The position numbers were made by a program, and so were the translations under genes. 64,000 nt of DNA, from IMG/VR virus record IMGVR_UViG_3300021255_002539, positions 350,061 through 414,060 of that record, one strand, 5' to 3'. Source of the stretch: a virus. Its lineage: Duplodnaviria; Caudoviricetes. The notes under the pieces were generated by a model that did no database searches, had not been told where the DNA came from, and was given only the letters and a program-made list of their open reading frames with translations. Below are positions 12,109 through 64,000 of the stretch, piece by piece; position 1 is the first letter of the stretch, and each line of letters starts with the position of its first letter.

Positions 12109-12864
12109 TCATTTAAGTAGAAGTGAATCATTCAGAACTATCTTGCCATCTACAAAGTCCTTATACTGTTTCTCACCAATAAAGTAGATTCTTATTCCTG
12201 GATTGTTTTCCAAGACAAGACGCATCTTTTCCTTGTCTTTGTCTGAATAATAACCCTTTACTTCAACATACTCGTTTGTATCTGGTAAGTAGAAATCTGG
12301 ATTATAGGTTTTGCGTATACCATCTTTAATGTATTTCAATGTTTTGTTCCTAATCCAATTTATACCATTTGCTGTCAATTTGTTGGCAACATTCTCCTCC
12401 CAATGACCCCTTACAGTATATTCAACACCATCTAAATTCTTCACTTTGTACCAACCAACATCTTTGAATCCCACTTTACACGAATCAAGATATTTAGAAC
12501 GAATTTCAGAAAGTTTCTCCCGCGTTTCTTTGGTATGATGGAAAGTTCTTCCTTTCTGCGAGATTTTGTTTTTCTCTGCTATTTGTCTTACTTTTGTTGA
12601 TGTTTCACTGGTCAATCCCTTGTTCCATGCCATTCCCTTCTTGAATCCATGTTTCTCTTTTCTGTGGATTTGCATTTCGTTTCTTGTATGAAAAAGACCT
12701 CCACAAATTGTACACTTCCAAGTGTGTTGTTGCCTATTCACATTAAAATTGCACACATGGTGCTTTACTTGCTTCGCAATATACGAACATCTACAATGCT
12801 TGGAGCAGAACCTTCCGCTTCCATACGAGCCATCATGCTCGTTTCCACATACTTCACATATCAT
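12109..12864 (-). mobile_element. Free-standing homing-endonuclease-like gene (Zn fingers, NUMOD3-like motif, PD-(D/E)XK nuclease) inside the tRNA cluster
   Basis: CEVC..CSKHC, CTIC..H, WNKGLT, HTKETREKLS, YNPDFYL..VEVKG; low GC; TATAAATA upstream at 12913-12920. Confidence 0.75.
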
Positions 12865-13061: not shown

Positions 13062-13176
13062 GTTGAAATGAAAAAGTTGAAGCCCAGGAAATGGGTCAAA
13101 GACACCGGTTTTCTTCCGGAGTGAAATTCCCATCTTCGCCGTTTGGACATTTCTGCTTTACACCTCCTGGACTTCT

Positions 13177-13337
13177 GGGAGTTGCATCCAGTGCGTTCAA
13201 TCACTCCGCCACTATGCTGCGGGCTGCAACAAGGAGGGATTCAAACCCCCGGTCGAGTATCCTATATAGGAGCATGGGTGGCAGAAAGCAACCGGTGCGC
13301 GATTGCCACCACTCGACTCTGAATGCTGTTATCTCCC
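13177..13337 (-). ncRNA. YrlA-like circularly permuted tRNA mimic (candidate Y RNA)
   Basis: Order is long arm, T-arm (GGGGG TTTGAAT CCCTC), closed acceptor-like hairpin, D-arm; ends pair GGGAG/CTCCC and GCATTCAG/CTGGATGC. Confidence 0.72.
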
Positions 13338-13354
13338 ATTTAACTTGAAAAACT

Positions 13355-13429
13355 TGGAGCGAACGATGGGTGCTGCCCCCACTTGATCCAACCTGGCAGA
13401 TTGGTGTACTGCTGATGTACCACGTTCGC
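13355..13429 (-). tRNA. tRNA-Gly(GCC)
   Basis: CCAAT-CTGCCAG-GTTGG; UCCA. Confidence 0.88.
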
Positions 13430-13580
13430 ATTGAAATGGTGTGAGATTCGAGGACTCTTACCCCCATTACCATCAACTTGGAATGCGGACTTGACGTCCT
13501 AATCCACATTCTGCTTGATGACCAAGCGGACTCACCGGCCGAATGGCATTCTACCAAGGAGCGACCTTGGCATTGAAACT

Positions 13581-13663
13581 TGGAGCCCCGATACAAGTAC
13601 GACTTGATCCAATCCTCCATTACTGGGTGGGATTGACATTCCCCGTTATGGAATTACCGAAGC
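13581..13663 (-). ncRNA. CCA-ended tRNA-like RNA with an elongated anticodon arm
   Basis: GCTTCGGT/ATCGGGGC-TCCA stem; CAATCC...GGATTG long arm. Confidence 0.55.
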
Positions 13664-13687
13664 ATGTTGAAATCGTCTATATGAAAT

Positions 13688-13761
13688 TGGTTGTCCCGCC
13701 TGGGTTCGGACCAGGTCTAAGGGTATCAAAAACCCCTGTGCAGCCGATACACCACGGGACA
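13688..13761 (-). tRNA. tRNA-Gln(UUG)
   Basis: GGGGT-TTTTGAT-ACCCT; U1-A72; CCA. Confidence 0.9.
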
Positions 13762-13770
13762 TTTTGAAAT

Positions 13771-14027
13771 TGGCGGTGGCGTTGGGTTCGCACCAACAGT
13801 CTCGTGGGGCTTTGGGGAATTTTTAGTACGCACGAATGCAAGGCGAGAGCCTATAGTCAACTGAGGCAGAACTTGACATTCCAACCCCAATCCAAACTCG
13901 CCAACCCCAGGGTCACCTGGCTCCCTGCATGGAAGTTGTCAAGACCTCCACGCAACTTCTGTGACACTACTTGCTCCTCGTTCCCTTGGAACATGCCCTT
14001 TGTTCTTTTGTGTTTGAACTATCCACC
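13771..14027 (-). ncRNA. 257-nt tRNA-like RNA with a ~180-nt structured domain in place of the anticodon loop
   Basis: GGTGG/CCACC-GCCA acceptor, GTTC..GAAC D-arm, GGGC/GCCC stem, GTTGG-TGCGAAC-CCAAC T-arm. Confidence 0.6.
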
Positions 14028-14034
14028 ATTGAAA

Positions 14035-14340
14035 GGGTCTGCAGACTGTCTTTACATTGGAATCTCTGCAGGGAAACCAACAACCAGACCTGACTAGCAG
14101 GGTTTCGTTTCTCGTCTGGTATGCCATCTAGCATAGCGATACACGCAGTGGGCTACGCTGCTCCCTGGGTCTGCTTTCCTCCCAGCTCAGCCCAACACGT
14201 TCTTGGGACTTGCATATGGCGTCTGTGATATCCCACAATTGACTTCAATCAGCACATCGGGATTCGGACCACGGTTTCACTCTTCGTGTATTCTACCTTT
14301 TTGAACTATTTGTGCCTAATCTTCATGTGACAGACGCACA
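14035..14340 (-). ncRNA. Structured ncRNA containing an embedded tRNA-like core
   Basis: GCGTCTGT/ACAGACGC stem enclosing D-arm, short arm and T-arm; bounded by TTTCAA spacers. Confidence 0.5.
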
Positions 14341-14346
14341 TTGAAA

Positions 14347-14625
14347 TGCTTGAAGCGGAGATTGCTTATGTTTGACCGGTGCACCGGCAAGTTCATCGTG
14401 TTTACGGACCAGGAAAGAACCAGCTGACCCCTGAATCCTATTTGTTAAGTGTCATGACACTTAACAACCCACTGGACGCTTGTTATGTCCTCTCCGCAGA
14501 ATCTATCCAGGGGAAATCCACTTGTGGCATGCGATATATTTGGCGCAGGTGCCGTCGGCGCATATACTTTGTTTGCCGCACATATTCCCATATGAACCAA
14601 TTGATCCACATGTGCCATAAGGGGA
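14347..14625 (-). ncRNA. Putative structured ncRNA with a 26-bp perfect palindrome
   Basis: ttgttaagtgtcatgacacttaacaa at about 14442-14467; non-coding unit between spacers. Confidence 0.4.
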
Positions 14626-14628
14626 AAG

Positions 14629-14718
14629 TGGTGTGGAACGCCGGATTCGGACCGGCAATGTCCCGTTGGGGACGCAGGATTAGGAATCCTGTCGAGTGTC
14701 CAATTGTCGCAGTCCCAC
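14629..14718 (-). tRNA. tRNA-Arg(CCU) with a long variable arm
   Basis: CAGGA-TTCCTAA-TCCTG; V-arm GTCCC-CAAC-GGGAC; CCA. Confidence 0.82.
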
Positions 14719-14728
14719 ATGTTGAAAT

Positions 14729-14846
14729 TGGTGGCTGTCTTGCGGGTATCAACCCCGCTGTCTCCCCAACGGGCGATGCATCAACCCATCTTGTCAGGGA
14801 ACCCGTTTTACGCACAGGCCAGGACCAAATACCTGAGTATCAAGCC
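14729..14846 (-). ncRNA. CCA-ended 118-nt tRNA-like RNA
   Basis: GGCT/AGCC-ACCA terminus; T-like arm GCGGG-GTTGATA-CCCGC; no normal anticodon arm. Confidence 0.5.
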
Positions 14847-14855
14847 ATTGAAATC

Positions 14856-14930
14856 TGGCGGGGTAACGGGTAGTCGAAACCCGATAGTCTGCTCGACAGG
14901 CAGATGAACTAGCCGTTGTTCTATTACCCC
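14856..14930 (-). tRNA. tRNA-Asp(GUC)
   Basis: TCTGC-CTGTCGA-GCAGA; GCCA. Confidence 0.9.
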
Positions 14931-14934
14931 GAAA

Positions 14935-15074
14935 TGGTGTGGTCTACCGAGATTGATTTCTCAATCTCGGCTTCATGCTTCATCGTCCCAACCGTGCTTG
15001 GTTTTCGCTAATCTATTATTGGTCGGAACTCCACATGCATGTCGTTCGCAACGCGAACGATCCCTGCGACCCAC
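14935..15074 (-). ncRNA. CCA-ended 140-nt multi-hairpin RNA
   Basis: GTGGGTC/GACCAC-ACCA; hairpins TCGTTCGC/GCGAACGA and CCGAGATTGA/TCAATCTCGG. Confidence 0.55.
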
Positions 15075-15097
15075 AGGTACTGAAACCAAATCGTCCA

Positions 15098-15182
15098 ATT
15101 GTCAAAGAACAACCTTTGTCTAATGCGCAAGCATTATTCAAAGAGCATATCCAATTATACAACACATCCAGTCAAATGTAAA
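15098..15182 (-). promoter_or_regulatory. Internal sigma70-type promoter with boxA-like antitermination sites
   Basis: TTTACA-N17-TATAAT followed by GCTCTTTGAAT and GTTCTTTGACAA. Confidence 0.75.
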
Positions 15183-15231
15183 GTGGTTTCCGATGTTGGA
15201 TTTGAACCAACGACTCCAATCGGAATCAAAC

Positions 15232-15307
15232 TGGTAGATGTGGAGAGAATCGAACTCCCGACGCATACCATGTGAAGGTATCGCTCTAGCCACTGAGCTA
15301 CACATCC
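15232..15307 (-). tRNA. tRNA-Val(CAC)
   Basis: ATACC-TTCACAT-GGTAT; CCA. Confidence 0.92.
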
Positions 15308-15316
15308 ATTTGAAAC

Positions 15317-15395
15317 TGGGTCGCCGTGCAGAATTCGAATCTGCGATTTCCTCGTTCACAGCGAGGCGTCTTAACCAGGCTCGACTAACGGCAAC
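15317..15395 (-). tRNA. tRNA-His(GUG)
   Basis: CCTCG-CTGTGAA-CGAGG; G-1:C73. Confidence 0.92.
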
Positions 15396-15402
15396 ATCTA
15401 AA

Positions 15403-15495
15403 TGGCGGATGAGGCGCGTCCCGGCCGCGCATGCCCGATTTCTCGGAGCCATTCGCTTTCCAAGCGAAGCTGTTTGCCAATTCCAGCACTCATCC
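15403..15495 (-). tRNA. tRNA-Ser(GGA)
   Basis: TTCGC-TTGGAAA-GCGAA; long V-arm; GCCA. Confidence 0.88.
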
Positions 15496-15501
15496 ATAAA
15501 C

Positions 15502-15595
15502 TGCGGAGCAAGCAGGCTCTGCCCCTGCGGGGGACATTTCTGCCCCACGACGGATTAGCAATCCGCGCCCTTATGACTGACTTGGGTATTGCTCC
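15502..15595 (-). tRNA. tRNA-Ser(GCU)
   Basis: GCGGA-TTGCTAA-TCCGT; long V-arm; no encoded CCA. Confidence 0.85.
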
Positions 15596-15606
15596 ATGTT
15601 GAAATC

Positions 15607-15690
15607 CGGATGCGGAGCGACTCGAACGCCCAATCCCGTGAAGGACACCTGAGTTCAAATCAGGCCGACTACCAATTATCACACGCATCC
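15607..15690 (-). tRNA. tRNA-Ser(UGA)
   Basis: CCTGA-TTTGAAC-TCAGG; long V-arm; no encoded CCA. Confidence 0.85.
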
Positions 15691-15705
15691 ATAAATTGAA
15701 ATCTG

Positions 15706-15791
15706 CAGATGGAGCTGGAATTGCACCAACATGTGACTTTCGCCACCCCGACTTTCGAGGTCGGACCTTTACTGTTTAGGAGAATCCATCC
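15706..15791 (-). tRNA. tRNA-Ser(CGA)
   Basis: CCGAC-CTCGAAA-GTCGG; long V-arm. Confidence 0.82.
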
Positions 15792-15837
15792 ATCTTGTGA
15801 AATTGAAAAGGATATGGCGTTCCTGTTTCGCAAGATT

Positions 15838-16432
15838 ATGAACCTTGGACGACATGGACTCAAAGAACTACTCCTGGTGGCTGGCAACATCTTCCGGAAG
15901 TTTTATGTGCTTGGCTGTTTCAGCACCTCCAGTTGGCAGATATTTCGTTCTTAAGGCAAGCCATCTTGCCTTGGTATTTTTCTTTCCTCACGAAAGAAAA
16001 ACAACCAACAAAAAGAAATCATCTATTAAATCAAAAGAACCATCCGATTGGGAGTTGCTTCACCTTGCGGTTCATCAACCATCGCAGGACTTCCCACGAC
16101 TTTTCAATATATCCCATTTATCTGCATCCAAATGCCAGCAATTGCCATCTTGTTGAGAGTTATCACCTTCGTATGTTCTAGTTTATCAGAACACACCTCT
16201 CGGTGGTTGCCGTGGTGAACATTGCATTTGGGTAGCCTTTCTTTCGGGTATGCACTCAATGGAAGGACTTGAACACTTCATGGTAATGGGCTTTTGCTCA
16301 TCTACATTAAGATGAACATCGCCAGCCAACCTACCATCATGGCGAATGACCGAACGAGTTGCCACTACTCTCGTCACTGAGCTGCCGTTGAAGCATTAAG
16401 CATACTGGGTTTAACTCCCCATCTGGTTCATT
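15838..16432 (-). ncRNA. Large (~595 nt) structured ncRNA, in the ROOL/GOLLD size class or novel
   Basis: 5' ATGAACC pairs with 3' GGTTCAT; GGTTGGCTGGCGATGT pairs with ATGTTGCCAGCCACC; many hairpins; no credible ORF. Confidence 0.65.
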
Positions 16433-16436
16433 TAAA

Positions 16437-16514
16437 TGGCACCTCTGGTCGGACTTGCACCGGCAAATATCCTGGATGAAAACCAGGTGACTCTACTAAT
16501 TTGTCTACAGAGGC
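16437..16514 (-). tRNA. tRNA-Glu(UUC)
   Basis: CCTGG-TTTTCAT-CCAGG; GCCA. Confidence 0.9.
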
Positions 16515-16521
16515 ATTGAAA

Positions 16522-16597
16522 TGGCAGTCTTAATGTGATTTGAACACATGTTTCGGGAGTGAGGTTCCCGCGTCCTAACCAACTAGACGATAAGACC
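16522..16597 (-). tRNA. tRNA-Glu(CUC), C33 variant
   Basis: CGGGA-ACCTCAC-TCCCG; GCCA. Confidence 0.85.
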
Positions 16598-16604
16598 ATT
16601 CATT

Positions 16605-16701
16605 TGGCAATATTCAACCAATGTTCCAAGGGGGAATCGGACCCGTTGTTGCCTATCGTCATACTTCTCACCAGAGTAGGAACATCGGTCATGGAATTGC
16701 C
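16605..16701 (-). ncRNA. tRNA-elbow mimic on a long extended stem
   Basis: GGCAAT/ATTGCC and ACCGATGTTCC/GGAACATTGGT stems enclosing D-like and T-like (GGG TCCGATT CCC) arms. Confidence 0.5.
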
Positions 16702-16721
16702 CAACCATCTTGCAAGTCATT

Positions 16722-16798
16722 TGGAGAGCAAGGTGGGAATCGAACCCACATTTGCGGATTTGCAGTCCGCCGCCAAGACCACTATTGGCAACTCGCCC
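16722..16798 (-). tRNA. tRNA-Cys(GCA)
   Basis: GCGGA-CTGCAAA-TCCGC; UCCA. Confidence 0.92.
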
Positions 16799-16879
16799 AT
16801 AAAAATGTGGAAGGTGGGTCTGGTTACCCACAACTTGTTCCTGGACAGGATTGTTTTTGCTGAAGACTACTTCCACAAA

Positions 16880-16953
16880 TGGCAAGGGCGATGCGAATCG
16901 AACACATGTCTTCAGTTTTGGAGACTGAGATACTACCACTGTATGACGCCCTT
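16880..16953 (-). tRNA. tRNA-Trp(CCA)
   Basis: TCAGT-CTCCAAA-ACTGA; GCCA. Confidence 0.92.
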
Positions 16954-16961
16954 ATTGAAAC

Positions 16962-17041
16962 TGGTAGGACTGGCGAGACTCGAACTCGCAAATCTCTTCG
17001 TTCGTAGCGAAGTGCAGTAGATCCGATTTTGCTACAGTCCC
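16962..17041 (-). tRNA. tRNA-Arg(ACG)
   Basis: CTTCG-CTACGAA-CGAAG; CCA. Confidence 0.92.
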
Positions 17042-17049
17042 ATTGAAAT

Positions 17050-17123
17050 TGGTTGGGGATGATGGTATTGCGCCACCTCTAAGAGGTTCAGAGCCTCCTG
17101 TACCACTTTTATACGAATCCCCA
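17050..17123 (-). tRNA. tRNA-Gln(CUG)
   Basis: GGAGG-CTCTGAA-CCTCT; U1-A72; CCA. Confidence 0.88.
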
Positions 17124-17133
17124 ATTGAAATCC

Positions 17134-17319
17134 TCAAACTTCCTCGCAGAAGTGCTTGCTTATCCTGAAACCCACTCCCTTGAGTTGATACACAGGCTTG
17201 CCATCGTTTCCAGTGCATTCGCCAATCACCTTGAAAGTCTCCCCTTGGTGTTCCCTAATCCACCTCTTGAAGTCCTCTGATTGCCAGGACGCGCTTGATT
17301 CAACTACCTTTACGAACAT
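17134..17319 (-). CDS. Small hypothetical protein within the tRNA operon
   Basis: Strong AAGGAGG RBS; 61 aa. Confidence 0.65.
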   Translation of the reverse strand: MFVKVVESSASWQSEDFKRWIREHQGETFKVIGECTGNDGKPVYQLKGVGFRISKHFCEEV

Positions 17320-17348
17320 GTCTTTCCTCCTTGTTCTTCTTGATGAAA

Positions 17349-17501
17349 TGGTGGCAACATCCGATTCTCACGGAACCTGCGACCACCAATGTCGCTGCGC
17401 TCATATGACCACCCTATCTAGAGTCAGATGGTCAAGTCCCTGTTTCTGGTGGAAGGCGAATTCAATTCCCTTCATACCCTTTGGGATTATACTATATTGC
17501 C
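17349..17501 (-). ncRNA. Oversized (153 nt) tRNA-like RNA with CT-CTA-GA near the tip of its anticodon-position arm
   Basis: GGCAATA/TGTTGCC-ACCA acceptor, expanded D region, TGACCAT/GTGGTCA arm, GCGAC/GTCGC V-arm, TCCG-TGAGAAT-CGGA T-arm. Confidence 0.6.
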
Positions 17502-17545
17502 TAAATTGGTGGACTAGTGCCGCACAAGGCGACATTGACCATAAA

Positions 17546-17620
17546 TGGTGGACCGGCGGGGTAACGCTCCCCGACTCTTTCGTTGCGAACGAAAAGTGCT
17601 GCTTCTATCACTATCGGCCC
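17546..17620 (-). tRNA. tRNA-Ala(CGC)
   Basis: TTTCG-TTCGCAA-CGAAA; G3-U70; CCA. Confidence 0.88.
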
Positions 17621-17632
17621 ATTGAAAGGGAA

Positions 17633-17780
17633 TGTTCAAGTTATCGGGCCCAGCCCTCTGGCTTCTGCAAGGTTGGAACTTGCGAGAACTTTGCTGCGTG
17701 GGGAAACCCCCTTGGCAACCGTAGCCAGTTTGTCATTTGTTAACTATGGTGGAAAGTTCCGACTTGAATGAACTTGAACA
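17633..17780 (-). ncRNA. ~150-nt structured RNA
   Basis: TGTTCAAGTT/AACTTGAACA closing stem with internal hairpins. Confidence 0.45.
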
Positions 17781-17794
17781 AAAGCGCACACCTA

Positions 17795-17864
17795 CCACAT
17801 GGCTGGACTCGAACCAACACCTCCGCCCTATGACGGGCGGTGTGCCACCATTACACTACACATG
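17795..17864 (-). ncRNA. tRNA-like RNA with a non-canonical anticodon loop and no CCA
   Basis: Normal D and T arms (GTTGG TTCGAGT CCAGC); CCGCCC-GTCATA-GGGCGG arm. Confidence 0.55.
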
Positions 17865-17976
17865 ATTTCGACCACTGCAAGATGGTCTTGCCCGGTGTCT
17901 GGCAAAATGTTCTCAATTATACGAAATAATCACCCTCAAATCTGTTGGCTGCAACCATGAGTTTGGGGGTTGAAAT

Positions 17977-18309
17977 TGGTGGAGCGGAGGGGAATCGAAC
18001 CCCTGTCCGAAACAGTCCTGTTGGACGCTTTCTACAACAGTTTCCTATGTCATTTAACCTCTCATCATAATAGGAATCAGATGACAGGCGAGAATCCCCA
18101 TTGTAATGTTCCATCGGGTGGGGAAACCAGACCCAATGGACATGCCAGACAATGAATTCCCTACTCAAGCCCCATCTGGCGTCAGGCTTTTTTGGTAGGC
18201 TTAAGCAGCCATTCTGTAATCGTTGCCGTTTACTTGTTTTGGAATTTACGCCTCCCGGCATGGTGCTGCGTCTTTGGGATATTGCTCCGTCGAATACCTG
18301 AACCGCCCC
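17977..18309 (-). ncRNA. ssrA: tmRNA, tag (A)GNDYRMAA*
   Basis: 5' GGGGCGGTTCAGGTATTCGAC; 3' GGGGTTCGATTCCCCTCCGCTCCACCA; GTAAAC-GGC resume codon; tag ends GCT GCT TAA. Confidence 0.95.
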
Positions 18310-18319
18310 ATTGTCAAAT

Positions 18320-18395
18320 TGGTGGGAGGATGTGGGATCGAACCACAACCTTCGGATTTTCAGTCCGTAGTACACACCAAGTATACGATCCTCCC
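18320..18395 (-). tRNA. tRNA-Phe(GAA)
   Basis: CGGA-CTGAAAA-TCCG; CCA. Confidence 0.92.
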
Positions 18396-18402
18396 GATGA
18401 AA

Positions 18403-33905: not shown

Positions 33906-35063
33906 TTAGTTCAACGAACCACCCTTCGTTCGGTTGCACTTCTTACAAAGCATTTGGAGGTTTTCCTGAACCGTCTTGCCGCCGTTCCACCAAGGCACGA
34001 TGTGGTCGCCCTCCATTTCACCAATCAAAAAGTGCTTTCCGCAAACGGGGCAAATTCCCTTTTGCTGCTCATATGCAGTGGTTTTCTGGGCAACGGAGAA
34101 TTGGCGACGAGAGAGTTCACGAGCCACATCTTCACTTTCACCAGACAAGACATACTCATAGATGCCTTTCTTGTCGGTAATCTCCTCATTCGCCATGTGC
34201 TTGGCAACGAGTTCTTCCAACTTTGTCGGGTTATACTTGTTTTTGCCATACTTTGCAACCATTTTGCCCCAATTGACCCCCTTCATTGACGGGCGATAGT
34301 TCGGGAAAAGATACTTCACCCACTCAAGTACTGCCGTGTAGTATTTTTGGAGTTCCTCCGAATTCATATCGTTCTGGTGCTTTGCCATGTAATTGCAAAT
34401 GCGAGTGTCAAAGTCCTCCTCTGGGATTGCACTTGTAATCCAATCAAGCGCTGTCTCCAAGAAGTCCTGGCGAATTGTATTGCCAGTCACATAGTCTTCT
34501 CCAAGCAAGTATGCTGCGCAATTTCGCTTGGAGAAATACTTTTTTGCATCCTCAAGCCAAGTTCCAGTGTAGACAGAGTTGCGAAGCTCCTGGTCAGTCA
34601 ACTTTTCGCCAGCAATGTTGATGGTCTTGAACCAATCGTGTCGATCTTGCAGTGTTCCACCCTTGCACACAAAGATGAAAAGCTCGTAGTCAAGGATGTC
34701 GTTCGCCAGTTCAGGACAACTTGCCTGAATGTTATGGAAATACATCGGCTTGCCGTTCACAAGCACCGTGTAGTCACCATTGATGAATGTGCAAATTGAG
34801 AGACTGCGCTGCTGTCCATCCAACAACTCGTAGGTGCCGTTTTCAAGCTCGGCCCAATATACACTGCCAAGCGGAAATCCCTTCATCACAGAGGCAATCA
34901 CCGCCTTCTTTTCCTTTTCCTTGTAAACAAACTCGCGCTGATATGCGGGCCGAATGTCAAGTTTTCCATCGAAGCCGACGACGCCAAGTTCCCCATTGTC
35001 CTTGAAGCCGTTAGTTAGCTCACGAATTGTGACTACCTTGCGCTCGATTTGCATTTTTTTCAT
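33906..35063 (-). CDS. DUF262 plus HNH nuclease (GmrSD-like)
   Basis: PAYQREFVY, LDGQQR, F..IN and CPVC..DHIVPW..GGKT..NLQMLCKKCN motifs. Confidence 0.9.
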   Translation of the reverse strand: MKKMQIERKVVTIRELTNGFKDNGELGVVGFDGKLDIRPAYQREFVYKEKEKKAVIASVMKGFPLGSVYWAELENGTYELLDGQQRSLSICTFINGDYTVLVNGKPMYFHNIQASCPELANDILDYELFIFVCKGGTLQDRHDWFKTINIAGEKLTDQELRNSVYTGTWLEDAKKYFSKRNCAAYLLGEDYVTGNTIRQDFLETALDWITSAIPEEDFDTRICNYMAKHQNDMNSEELQKYYTAVLEWVKYLFPNYRPSMKGVNWGKMVAKYGKNKYNPTKLEELVAKHMANEEITDKKGIYEYVLSGESEDVARELSRRQFSVAQKTTAYEQQKGICPVCGKHFLIGEMEGDHIVPWWNGGKTVQENLQMLCKKCNRTKGGSLN

Positions 35064-42640: not shown

Positions 42641-44299
42641 TCAGATGGACATGTTCTCAATGTCCTCCACCATGGACTTCAGCTTGCCAGCCTTGTACAT
42701 GGAGATTATGTCAAAGATGTTGTTCGACCAGCCCGAGACATTGAGCAGCTTGAGGTTGGGGTTGAACACGGAGGTGCCACTCTGGCCCCTGATGTTGCAG
42801 CACACCGTAAGGCAATTGGGGTTGATCTTCCTGAATTCCTTGAACAAGTCCTGGAACTTGACTCTGGATGTGCTGGTGCAGTCCCAACCACCCTCGCCAC
42901 CATCGCCAATCTCCATGTCAGAGAACACGATGAAGTTGTCGATGTGCTTCTTCTCCTTGATGACATTCTTGAGGAACTCGTATAGTCCATTCTCGGTCGC
43001 TCCACCACACTTGTCGCCCTCGTCGTAAGTGTGCTTGTTGAACTCAAGCAGACCAATGCCCCTGTCCATTGCAGGAGAGATTAGCCTGTCTCCGAACATG
43101 CCAATGTAGACATCCTTCTGCTTGAACGCCACGATGGAGCCGAAGAGATTGCCAATGTGCGCCGTATTGACGCTGCTCCAAGGCGAGACGCCCGAAGATG
43201 CCCAAGAATCCCCCCTCACAGAGCCAGAGTGGTCGATGAGGACAGCGCAGTTGCCCTCCAGGTCAGGGACATTCTCGCAGGCGATGTTCATCGCCTGTTC
43301 AAGTGCCTTTGACACCTTGGACTTCAGCTCAGAGAGCTTGCTTGCGGTCATGTTGGAGGATTTCGCTTCGTCTGACTCGAACTTAATCTTCGTGTCGGTT
43401 TCGTCCCCATTAATGTAGTCAGACATCTCCAACTTGTTCACAGCATCGTATGCAGACATGAACCTGAATGGCAGGAGCCTGCTGTTCACAACCTTGTCGT
43501 GGTTCGTGAGCTGCTTGGTTGCCTCGTCAATCAAGTCAGGAGCATAGAGCATGATGTTCCTGAGGTTGCGGAGCAGGTTCATTATTGGCATTCCCTTCTC
43601 AAGCACAGCCTTGATTGCGTCGTGCTTCGCCAGAACCAGCTCCTGCTCGTTGCTTGCGTTCTGGCCCGTAGCTGCCATCTCCTTCTCCAGAATCTTGGAG
43701 TCGTATGTCCCATCAAGGGACTCCCCATGCATCAGGCGGCGATATGCCTCCCTGTTCTTGTCAGTTGGGGTTGGATGGAGCAGATTCACGATGTCCACCA
43801 AGGACAGGTACTTGCCCTTCATCTTGTACTTGTCAATCTGATATGGCGAGAGATTGGAAAGCACAGTGCCAAAGCCCCTCTTCATGGCGTTGGGTACCTT
43901 GCGAATCTTGCCATCGGTGGCATTCATCTTGGCATAGCAAGACAGAATCTCGGAAATGTCGTCTGGCCGAAGGACAATATGCTCGTAGAAGGACTTGAGC
44001 CAGGTTGGGTGCGTGGAGTCCTTACAGACCAATGCAGCAAGAAGATGGCTCACCGAGCGGAGGTTTCCCTTCGTCCTGGCATAGAGGGCCAACTTCGCAG
44101 TGAACTCGTAGCCACACTTTTGGGCAAGCTCAACGATGTTCTGCGTCAACTGATTCTCGGTGACATAGTATGCGTCAGTGAGGAAAGTGGTCATGACCAT
44201 GGAAGTCAAGGCTTCCTTGTCAGACAGAACATATGCGTCCTCGCCCATGAAGTTCTGCTCCATTTGTGCGCCAGCCTTCTTCTCGTTGAACTTGCTCAT
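42641..44299 (-). CDS. rsr: Ro60/TROVE-domain RNA-binding protein with a vWA domain
   Basis: KLALYARTKGNLRSVSH, RPDD, YQIDKY, DIVNLLHP, LLRNLRN, SRLLPFRFMSAY and DHSGS MIDAS-like motifs. Confidence 0.93.
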   Translation of the reverse strand: MSKFNEKKAGAQMEQNFMGEDAYVLSDKEALTSMVMTTFLTDAYYVTENQLTQNIVELAQKCGYEFTAKLALYARTKGNLRSVSHLLAALVCKDSTHPTWLKSFYEHIVLRPDDISEILSCYAKMNATDGKIRKVPNAMKRGFGTVLSNLSPYQIDKYKMKGKYLSLVDIVNLLHPTPTDKNREAYRRLMHGESLDGTYDSKILEKEMAATGQNASNEQELVLAKHDAIKAVLEKGMPIMNLLRNLRNIMLYAPDLIDEATKQLTNHDKVVNSRLLPFRFMSAYDAVNKLEMSDYINGDETDTKIKFESDEAKSSNMTASKLSELKSKVSKALEQAMNIACENVPDLEGNCAVLIDHSGSVRGDSWASSGVSPWSSVNTAHIGNLFGSIVAFKQKDVYIGMFGDRLISPAMDRGIGLLEFNKHTYDEGDKCGGATENGLYEFLKNVIKEKKHIDNFIVFSDMEIGDGGEGGWDCTSTSRVKFQDLFKEFRKINPNCLTVCCNIRGQSGTSVFNPNLKLLNVSGWSNNIFDIISMYKAGKLKSMVEDIENMSI

Positions 44300-62647: not shown

Positions 62648-63853
62648 TTATACCACTTTGTTTTCGTCCTGTAAAGCCACAAGCTTGCTCCTGACTTCAG
62701 TCAATGCCTTGCCAAGAAGGTTCTGGCCCTTCCAATTCCTTTCGTCAAGAACTCCCTGGTCCTGGATGCCCCAAATGCCATCAGACGGGGATGCCTCGAC
62801 AAAGGTCTTGCCATCAAACTCTGGGTCGAGTAACTTGTTGTGGTGGTAGGTACATTGGCTGAATCTGGCGAAGTTCACATCCCGCATCACCTCGTATCTT
62901 ACTGACCACTTCTCGTCGTCGTAGTTCTTCACCATACGCCCCAACTTCTTGCACTCCATCGGGTCATCGGTAACGGCCAGAATCTTCTTTGCAATATCAA
63001 CATCTCCAAAGAACATCGCCTTTGCCCACATGAACGCTTGCTCTGTGCAGAAGAACTCATGCTCCTCGCCATCAAAGGACCAGCGGAACTTGCATCTTGA
63101 GAAGTTGGAGAGGAAGCTGCCATAGAAAAACACGTACTTGTCAGTGACCCTATAGCCCTTCTCGTACATCTTGTCAGTAGTCTGAACCGGGTCAGGATAA
63201 GTGGGCTTCACAGAATCTTGCGCGGCGTCGAATATGCCCTGCGCCCCAATCAACTCGATGAACTTGGACACCCTCTCGTCCCTGGTACCGAAGATGGCGT
63301 CAGATACCTTGTCCACAGGAAGAACGCCAGACAGAAGAAGCTTCAACAATGTGTCACTGAACAACCAATCTATCTCCTGACGGTACTCCAGGTTCGTGTC
63401 CCGGAACTTGTCATCCACGACCACCACATTGCCGCACTTGTCGAGATCAAGGAACACAATCTTGTCGTACCTGCCAATCTCGCAGCAAAGCTTGTTGAAC
63501 ATGTTCTGCAAATCGTCCTCGGTTATGCCCAATTTGGGATTGTGCGCCTTGAGATACCTCGTATATACATATGCGTCAATTGGGGAACGGTCGGTCAAGT
63601 AGCAACCATCTGGCATCTGGTCGATGATGTCAAGCTGCTCAACCAAGGTGTCGAAGATGATCTTCTGAGATTCAAGGTTGCCCTCCCTGTTGATCTTGAG
63701 ACCCCTTTCCTCAATCTTCTTCCTGTAGTCGCAACCAACCGTCTGGAATTCCATCGCCGTCCCCTTGAACTTCTCCAATATGTCCCCTATGAATGTGGAC
63801 TTCCCTGTGTTCTGCGTTCCAATCACCCCAATAGTCAATTTCCCATTTGCCAT
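62648..63853 (-). CDS. AAA_28 P-loop kinase fused to a NADAR (YbiA-like) hydrolase
   Basis: GTQNTGKST and DRSPID; FLSNF, TEQAFMWAKA, KKLGR, VEASPSDGIWGI and GQNLLGKAL motifs. Confidence 0.9.
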   Translation of the reverse strand: MANGKLTIGVIGTQNTGKSTFIGDILEKFKGTAMEFQTVGCDYRKKIEERGLKINREGNLESQKIIFDTLVEQLDIIDQMPDGCYLTDRSPIDAYVYTRYLKAHNPKLGITEDDLQNMFNKLCCEIGRYDKIVFLDLDKCGNVVVVDDKFRDTNLEYRQEIDWLFSDTLLKLLLSGVLPVDKVSDAIFGTRDERVSKFIELIGAQGIFDAAQDSVKPTYPDPVQTTDKMYEKGYRVTDKYVFFYGSFLSNFSRCKFRWSFDGEEHEFFCTEQAFMWAKAMFFGDVDIAKKILAVTDDPMECKKLGRMVKNYDDEKWSVRYEVMRDVNFARFSQCTYHHNKLLDPEFDGKTFVEASPSDGIWGIQDQGVLDERNWKGQNLLGKALTEVRSKLVALQDENKVV

Positions 63854-64000
63854 TTCAATATCCTCCATCAATAGTTGTTGCTTGGACTGTACTTCCCAGT
63901 ATGAACATCGTCCAAATACCTGTCGTATCTGAGTTCCCAACTCTCCAATGGCTCGTCCTTGTGCCTCCTGTAGAACTCCATCATCCAATCCTTGGTGAGG

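Follow-up and report, generated by a model that had tools for sequence, protein, structure and literature searches.

Does a tRNA-like gene that carries some 180 nucleotides (nt) in place of its anticodon loop encode an interrupted tRNA, or an RNA of another kind? The question is raised by a locus in the final 64 kb of a virus record that measures 414,060 bp and has direct terminal repeats (IMG/VR record IMGVR_UViG_3300021255_002539, positions 350,061–414,060; this whole stretch of 64,000 nt is hereafter the window). The source virus is a jumbo phage, and the phage genes in the window include those for a portal resembling that of T4, for a Cpn60 chaperonin and for a TROVE/Ro60 protein. At ca. 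11.9–20.9 kb, on the minus strand, ARAGORN and Rfam identify an array of 27 tRNA genes and one transfer-messenger RNA (tmRNA) gene, and the element studied here is situated in this array between the genes for tRNA-Arg(CCU) and tRNA-Gln(UUG). It spans 257 nt and reads from 14027 to 13771 on the minus strand, which is the strand of all its parts described below; G1 is position 14027, the discriminator G is 13774 and the CCA occupies 13773–13771. We conclude that the element is probably the gene for a stable non-coding RNA in which a tRNA-like shell surrounds a cargo of ca. 180 nt, and which is cut out by tRNA-processing enzymes.

The tRNA-like frame and its relatives

In the frame, which encloses an insert of 184 nt, an acceptor stem of 5 bp with GCCA at its end is combined with a D arm, a neck of 4 bp and a T arm. 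The 5′ strand of the acceptor stem (GGUGG, 14023–14027) pairs with CCACC (13779–13775), which together with the discriminator and the encoded CCA makes up the 3′ end (13771–13779); U14028 might pair with position 73 as a further U·R. The D arm (14002–14019) has the stem GUUC/GAAC and an A-rich loop of 10 nt without GG, the neck, equivalent to an anticodon stem, is formed by GGGC (13995–13998) and GCCC (13807–13810), and the T arm (13781–13797) comprises GUUGG, the loop UGCGAAC and CCAAC. This frame is sub-canonical. No tRNA was called at the locus by ARAGORN, whether run without introns or with introns of up to 400 nt, or by the Rfam tRNA model, and no isotype among the array tRNAs was clearly nearest to the frame. 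The elbow nucleotides G18 G19 and T54 Ψ55 C56 occur in none of the element's copies, whereas most of 122 array tRNAs have both features (the D-loop GG is present in 107 of them); the T loop conforms to UGNRANY in all four copies, with a G where U55 would be expected.

Since no tRNA is called and the minimum free energy is at the level of shuffled sequences, the structure is not proven by a single sequence and the proof has to come from relatives. These were sought with a scan for the portal protein, which led to related phages of 418–434 kb, and then with nhmmer, motif scans and a covariance model, R1, which scores the element at 292.7 bits over exactly 13771–14027. In total, four distinct copies of 245–257 nt were found in related gut and rumen jumbo phages: that of the window; L014:16136-16380, from the 434-kb genome G002, with identical copies in L038, L041, L043 and L054; L023:7766-8021, from the 291-kb genome G004 and also found in L046; and L052:1611-1865, on a 2-kb metagenome contig. 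The copies always lie inside tRNA arrays but are flanked by different tRNAs in each genome, so that the element behaves like an independent, mobile gene.

Of the 67 pairs in the model alignment, 17 were altered on both sides, compared with 6.7 ± 1.9 in column shuffles (0 of 500), and paired cells amounted to 90.9 %, versus 39–52 % when the partners were slid. The automatic alignment shifted the acceptor register for the window-type rows; the register of a hand-curated table agrees among the copies and leaves the RCCA tail. In that register the acceptor stem reads GUCGC/GCGAC in L014, with three pairs altered on both sides, and the T stem covaries in three versions (GUUGG/CCAAC, GAGGG/CCCUC and GGCGG/CCGUC). 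A C-G pair of the neck is replaced by A-U in L014 (GGGA/UCCC), the D stem is kept in all copies, with one G-C changed to G·U in L023, and the 3′ end is RCCA followed by AUUU throughout. A preliminary description of this DNA had placed the 5′ and 3′ halves of a tRNA, with D arm, T arm and GCCA, at 13771–14027; both the coordinates and the strand were right, and the homolog covariance model that it proposed as a check shows that the halves co-fold and covary across the four copies. Judged by these sequence comparisons, the tRNA-like halves are genuine and exceed what chance would produce.

The family appears narrow. BLAST against GenBank phages gave no match to the element, no further copies were found in the rest of IMG/VR, in a metagenome scan or in prokaryote genomes, and an exact T-arm/acceptor pattern had no match in viral contigs. 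Scans with a tmRNA-tag pattern and two further motifs likewise gave no additional copies. Searches of the element, the array and the three other copies against Rfam, both at the gathering threshold and at E ≤ 10, returned nothing relevant, the matches to long non-coding RNAs being noise. There is one weak R1 match, at G000:312171-312315 (E = 0.05), which is a possible paralog. Separately, the loci picked up by the pattern scans were mostly chance occurrences; in 25 of 27 viral, 10 of 15 metagenome and all six genome loci neither nhmmer nor R1 showed similarity outside the pattern. Neither Rfam nor the literature searched describes the family, which is so far restricted to one small clade of jumbo phages from the gut and rumen.

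The fold of the insert and its presence in RNA

The insert replaces the anticodon loop (13811–13994; 168–184 nt in the four copies) and is as conserved as the frame, with 86–90 % identity among the close copies and 60 % to L014. Its first hairpin, H1 (13972–13993), pairs UGUUCC with GGAGCA beneath a loop containing the invariant GGGAACGA, and covaries with L014, where it is a UGCA-based stem. A U·G pair of H1 in the window and in L023 becomes C-G in L052, in which AUGUU reads AUGCU, and U-A in L014. Because the change from GUU to GCU in L052 turns this U·G into C-G, the would-be anticodon bases evolve as the strand of a helix, unlike an anticodon or the wobble of a splice site. The block UAGUGUCACA (13960–13969) is identical in all copies, and its GUCAC can pair with GUGAC at 13912–13916; this pairing is invariant, so that covariation neither supports nor refutes it.

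The second hairpin, H2 (13925–13955), has a 12-bp stem and the 7-nt loop CUUGACA, and five of its pairs are altered on both sides across copies; it is largely rewritten in L014, yet its pairing is retained. Next comes GAGCC followed by the invariant CAGGUGACC (13911–13923). In the hand-curated helix table, GAGCC pairs with GGCUC at 13847–13851 to form H3, a candidate pseudoknot with one compensatory pair (GAGCC/GGCUC in the window type versus GAGGC/GCCUU in L014). Hairpin H4 (13859–13892; GAUUGGGG-UGGAAU ... GUUCUG-CCUCAGUU) has four pairs altered on both sides, its outer 5 bp being GAUUG/CAAUC in L014. The long invariant blocks are located in loops and, on comparative grounds, such unpaired invariant blocks borne on covarying helices are the signature of a functional cargo. 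One of them, CAGGUGACC, may resemble J11/12 of RNase P, a double T-loop module that docks on the tRNA elbow, a likeness that we take as a lead only.

This conserved fold (H1, H2, H4 and the candidate H3) differs in good part from the nested helices listed in the preliminary description. GAAGUUG/CAACUUC, AUGCAGGG/CCUUGCAU and GUCAA/UUGAC are found in the window copy alone. GGCGAG/CUCGCC is intact in two copies but broken in L052 and deleted in L014, as an optional extension; the three close copies, but not L014, retain CCAGG/CCUGG, which competes or overlaps with the invariant GUCAC/GUGAC.

Eight of the 20 listed runs that hold parts of the stretch are RNA by record. We examined RNA cover with the contigs from three metatranscriptome runs, X3 and X9 from one study and X6 from another, against one probable source DNA run. 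Contigs over the element extend from 13773 to 14012 in X9 and from 13774 to 14005 in X6, and X3 has two, at 13781–13932 and 13903–13975. They run unspliced through both junctions between frame and insert, and no joint was reported there. In both studies contigs end at 13773/13774, 2–3 nt from the CCA end, an agreement that the tool itself rates as a weak hint of a real end. Three further discrete units appear in the RNA contigs (13075/13080 to 13341/13347, 14105/14111 to 14328/14351, and 14330/14386 to 14597/14610). RNA cover is zero at 13402–13736 and 14675–15000, where the DNA run is flat at ca. 19×, which indicates that the RNA contigs are not DNA carry-over; zero cover over spacers and canonical tRNAs was not taken as evidence of absence. 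The X9 contig represents an expressed strain variant, with six differing positions, five of them in H2, and four of these five keep the pairing.

The boundaries of the element also carry a short motif, TTTCAA, upstream at 14029–14034 and downstream at 13764–13769, the latter in common with the next gene, that of tRNA-Gln (13688–13761). Within the array (window 13063–20902) the motif has 36 matches on the minus strand versus 2 on the plus strand, with ca. 4 expected per strand, and it is placed where tRNAs and the RNA-contig units begin or end. TTTCAA thus looks like a processing or punctuation signal.

A putative cargo RNA and the alternatives

Covariation of frame and insert, discrete unspliced RNA in two studies and bracketing by TTTCAA support a natural tRNA-scaffolded cargo RNA, the first of the two readings offered in the preliminary description. 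According to this model, the element would be transcribed together with the minus-strand tRNA array and excised at the TTTCAA-marked boundaries as tRNAs are, with RNase P presumably cutting at the 5′ side and the 3′ side being trimmed back to the encoded CCA, and would persist as a molecule of ca. 257 nt. The shell (acceptor stem, D arm, 4-bp neck, T arm and RCCA) would serve as a processing and stability handle, keeping features that tRNA-processing enzymes read, such as the acceptor/T helix, the RCCA tail and the array punctuation, and having lost those for decoding. It is probably not a decoder, because it has no anticodon loop and no D-loop GG, bears a G at position 55 and has a short acceptor stem. 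The working part would be the insert, in which H1, H2, H4 and the long-range pairings may display the invariant unpaired GGGAACGA, UAGUGUCACA and CAGGUGACC, perhaps to bind a host or phage factor or to act as a decoy.

In its architecture the element is analogous to the engineered tRNA scaffold of Ponchon and Dardel (PMC3753655), of which it could be regarded as the natural counterpart. In both, a cargo replaces the anticodon loop atop the anticodon stem, and in the engineered version the shell brings processing by tRNA enzymes and protection from nucleases; this analogy, in which the processing enzymes would be those that act on tRNAs, is in keeping with the TTTCAA boundaries and with a discrete RNA unit that ends beside the CCA in two studies. 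The engineered scaffold, however, is a laboratory construct with a fully canonical shell, whereas the element has a natural shell that is degenerate at the elbow and co-evolves with the cargo. Non-canonical tRNAs of bacteria and phages, such as the 8/4 and 9/3 tRNAs (PMC5389517), also share with the element an unusual acceptor/T geometry and an origin in phage-associated tRNA-like genes of metagenomes and metatranscriptomes, but they keep an anticodon arm and decode, and the element has no such arm.

Several observations weigh against a tRNA-shelled cargo RNA. The comparison includes just four sequences, three of them close, and a complete relative, G003, does not have the element, which is therefore dispensable. 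The acceptor/T stack is one layer below the canonical 12 unless U-1 pairs with R73, so that efficient handling by RNase P or the CCA enzyme is an assumption of the model. The stability of the minimum free energy structure is unremarkable (z = −0.92 versus shuffles), the H3 pseudoknot and the invariant pairings GUCAC/GUGAC and GGGG/CCCC are weakly tested, and no family match gives a lead to the function or partner of the cargo. As to the RNA, contigs show no exact ends, strand or abundance and would miss a spliced tRNA of ca. 80 nt, so partial splicing is possible. Finally, a 73-nt back-join, described below, hints at further processing outside the proposed model.

Foremost among the alternatives, although unlikely, is that the element is a tRNA gene, originally for tRNA-Asn (GUU), with a small or degenerate intron in its anticodon loop that is self-spliced or removed by proteins, the 257-nt RNA being the precursor. 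The position of the insert is suggestive, since the loop remnants AUGUU...AA give a 7-nt loop with GUU in two copies, and, as in bacterial tRNA genes that contain group I introns, a long insert at the anticodon loop starts with a hairpin, H1, that resembles P1 and contains a U·G in two copies, those of the window and L023. The same bases, however, drift among copies, the implied anticodons being GUU, GUU, GCU and AUU, position 33 is G in L014, and the U·G of H1 varies through C-G and U-A as in an ordinary helix. ARAGORN accepts the joined halves as a cloverleaf at a relaxed threshold, but at its default called a tRNA in none of 32 hypothetical spliced products, and the D and T loops have no elbow nucleotides. 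No tRNA-Asn was found by ARAGORN in any fetched array, a weak argument considering that the fetched array of G003 has neither a tRNA-Asn nor the element.

In agreement with the preliminary description, which had seen no group I core, neither Intron_gpI (RF00028) nor another ribozyme model gave a match at E ≤ 10 in the four copies, and RF00028 had none in the whole 414-kb genome or in the array; Williams (2020; doi 10.1101/2020.01.27.920355), whose operational criteria were applied here, accepted Intron_gpI matches of at least ca. 18–20 bits. The omega base is U, C or A at all eight possible splice sites in the window, L023 and L052, and G solely at two sites in L014, so that the lack of a terminal omega-G noted earlier holds for three copies but not for the fourth. 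Bacterial tRNA group I introns are ca. 200–250 nt long, longer than the insert of 168–184 nt. All the RNA contigs are unspliced, although contigs are blind to a short spliced tRNA, and the phage encodes neither RtcB nor a tRNA splicing endonuclease; a reverse transcriptase and a CCA-adding enzyme are not encoded by it either. The element thus differs from group I intron-containing tRNA genes in its missing core match, in the omega base of three of four copies, in exons that do not form a regular tRNA, in a non-conserved anticodon and in its unspliced RNA, and an intron of an unknown type, the other reading first offered for this locus, is disfavoured on these same grounds and by the lack of splicing machinery.

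It is improbable that the element encodes a chargeable tRNA-like RNA acting on the ribosome or on tRNA-handling enzymes, either in the manner of tmRNA or as a decoy for tRNA-targeting defences or tRNA-binding proteins. Such a role would fit the encoded RCCA end and the covarying acceptor/T helix, and H2 has a 7-nt loop like that of an anticodon (CUUGACA or CUUGCAG). tmRNA (RF00023) is the architecturally nearest known system, as its ends also form an acceptor/T-arm module with CCA around a large structured domain that replaces the anticodon arm, and a standard tmRNA is encoded in the same phage array (17977–18309). Nevertheless, the element has no match to the tmRNA model and no tag open reading frame: the frame of 45–65 amino acids that starts at the 'anticodon' AUG is open just in the three close copies and does not persist in L014, with differences that track the RNA pairing. 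G3·U70 is also absent, the 3:70 pair being U-A or C-G. The element further differs from tmRNA in keeping a D stem and a 4-bp neck, in its non-canonical T loop and in a much smaller insert (184 nt). Such an RNA is additionally disfavoured by the missing elbow nucleotides and the short acceptor/T stack, and the phage already has its tmRNA.

Of the same low probability is a role as precursor of a smaller RNA, such as a 73-nt domain closed by GUCAC/GUGAC and containing H2. This segment (13903–13975) was assembled in X3 (record 7) as a cyclic unitig in which U13903 is joined to A13975, with a depth of 17.9 and an overlap of 30 letters, and the neighbouring unit 13075–13347 assembles as a circle in two runs, so that circular RNAs may arise from the array. 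The 73-nt cycle, however, comes from one run and has a 30-letter side, whereas the element is covered by linear full-length contigs in X6 and X9; its 5′ break falls inside the H1 stem, and RtcB is not encoded by the phage. The cycle could reflect circular processing, a strain variant or an artefact of the library.

The least probable alternative is a Y-RNA-like partner that would tether the Ro60 of the phage to another factor through its tRNA-like part: although the phage encodes a TROVE/Ro60-like protein of 552 amino acids (42641–44299, minus strand) and the known bacterial and phage Y RNAs have tRNA-like modules (PMC4201824, PMC12135203), the motif GNCGAAN0-1G is found in none of the four copies, RF02553 matches neither the element nor the array or the other copies, and the unit 13075–13347, with GGCGAAG and a terminal stem, is a better Y-RNA candidate. 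Nor do the genes travel together, as the Ro60 gene lies 29 kb from the element, TROVE homologs are present in G002 and G003 and absent from G004, G003 has Ro60 without the element and G004 the element without Ro60. The element shares with YrlA/Y RNAs (RF02553; PMC4201824, PMC12135203) that it is a tRNA-mimicking non-coding RNA in a genome encoding Ro60, and YrlA of M. smegmatis is cleaved by RNase P and receives CCA, according to the same sources. The topology is opposite, however: YrlA RNAs measure 80–130 nt and have the permuted order of T arm, closed acceptor hairpin and D arm, with a terminal Ro-binding stem, GNCGAA and canonical D- and T-loop nucleotides, whereas the element runs in the order acceptor, D, insert, T, acceptor and has open acceptor ends, a free RCCA tail and no terminal Ro-binding stem.

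The element may be, with the chances evenly balanced, the founding member of an undescribed class of natural tRNA-shelled cargo RNAs that are excised by host tRNA processing and whose conserved cargo acts in trans on a host or phage factor. Such RNAs may be further processed into a small circular RNA, and the element could be one of a wider set, as the array holds several other stable non-tRNA units. If this is so, phages have evolved the RNA engineers' trick of placing a functional RNA inside a tRNA shell to be processed and protected by the cell. This would be a third architecture of tRNA-mimicking non-coding RNAs, beside tmRNA and YrlA, and the tRNA arrays of huge phages would be operons for structured RNAs generally, beyond translation. 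The invariant loops of the cargo would offer a direct handle for the pull-down of partners, and inserts flanked by tRNA halves would not warrant annotation as introns by default.

Other units and genes of the window

The unit at 13075–13347 (minus strand) was assembled as a circle of ca. 267–269 nt in two RNA runs of one sample and not in the DNA run; in X3 the assembly 'goes back 268', and in X9 it wraps with an overlap of 30 nt. It contains the Y-RNA motif GGCGAAG at 13140, AAAUGGG/CCCAUUU as a terminal stem, and a T arm of canonical appearance that precedes a closed hairpin; it could be a YrlA-like RNA, either circular or circularly processed. Two sub-threshold, partial matches to the YrlA model were also observed in the array of G004 (L058, positions 348–411 and 2499–2566; 31 and 36 bits), a phage that has no TROVE gene. 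These may be false positives from adjacent tRNAs, of which the YrlA paper warns.

No tRNA was called in the other two RNA-contig units, 14105–14351 and 14330–14610 (minus strand). Their DNA is conserved in G002 and G003, with 71–94 % identity, elsewhere in those arrays, and the first of them contains a D-arm-like AUAGUUCAAA...GAAU similar to that of the element. The array also includes, at 17793–17866 (minus strand), a tRNA with 43 bits to the Rfam model for which ARAGORN reports an undetermined anticodon of two bases, 'ca'.

Inside the tRNA array there is an open reading frame of 251 amino acids (12109–12864, minus strand) with an endonuclease I-like domain and a zinc finger, which also matches PHROG endonuclease and homing-endonuclease families and may encode a free-standing homing endonuclease. 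Two more genes of the window (33906–35063 and 62648–63988, minus strand) code for a protein with GmrSD-N and HNH endonuclease-like domains and for one with AAA_28 and NADAR domains, respectively, and may be conflict-related phage genes.
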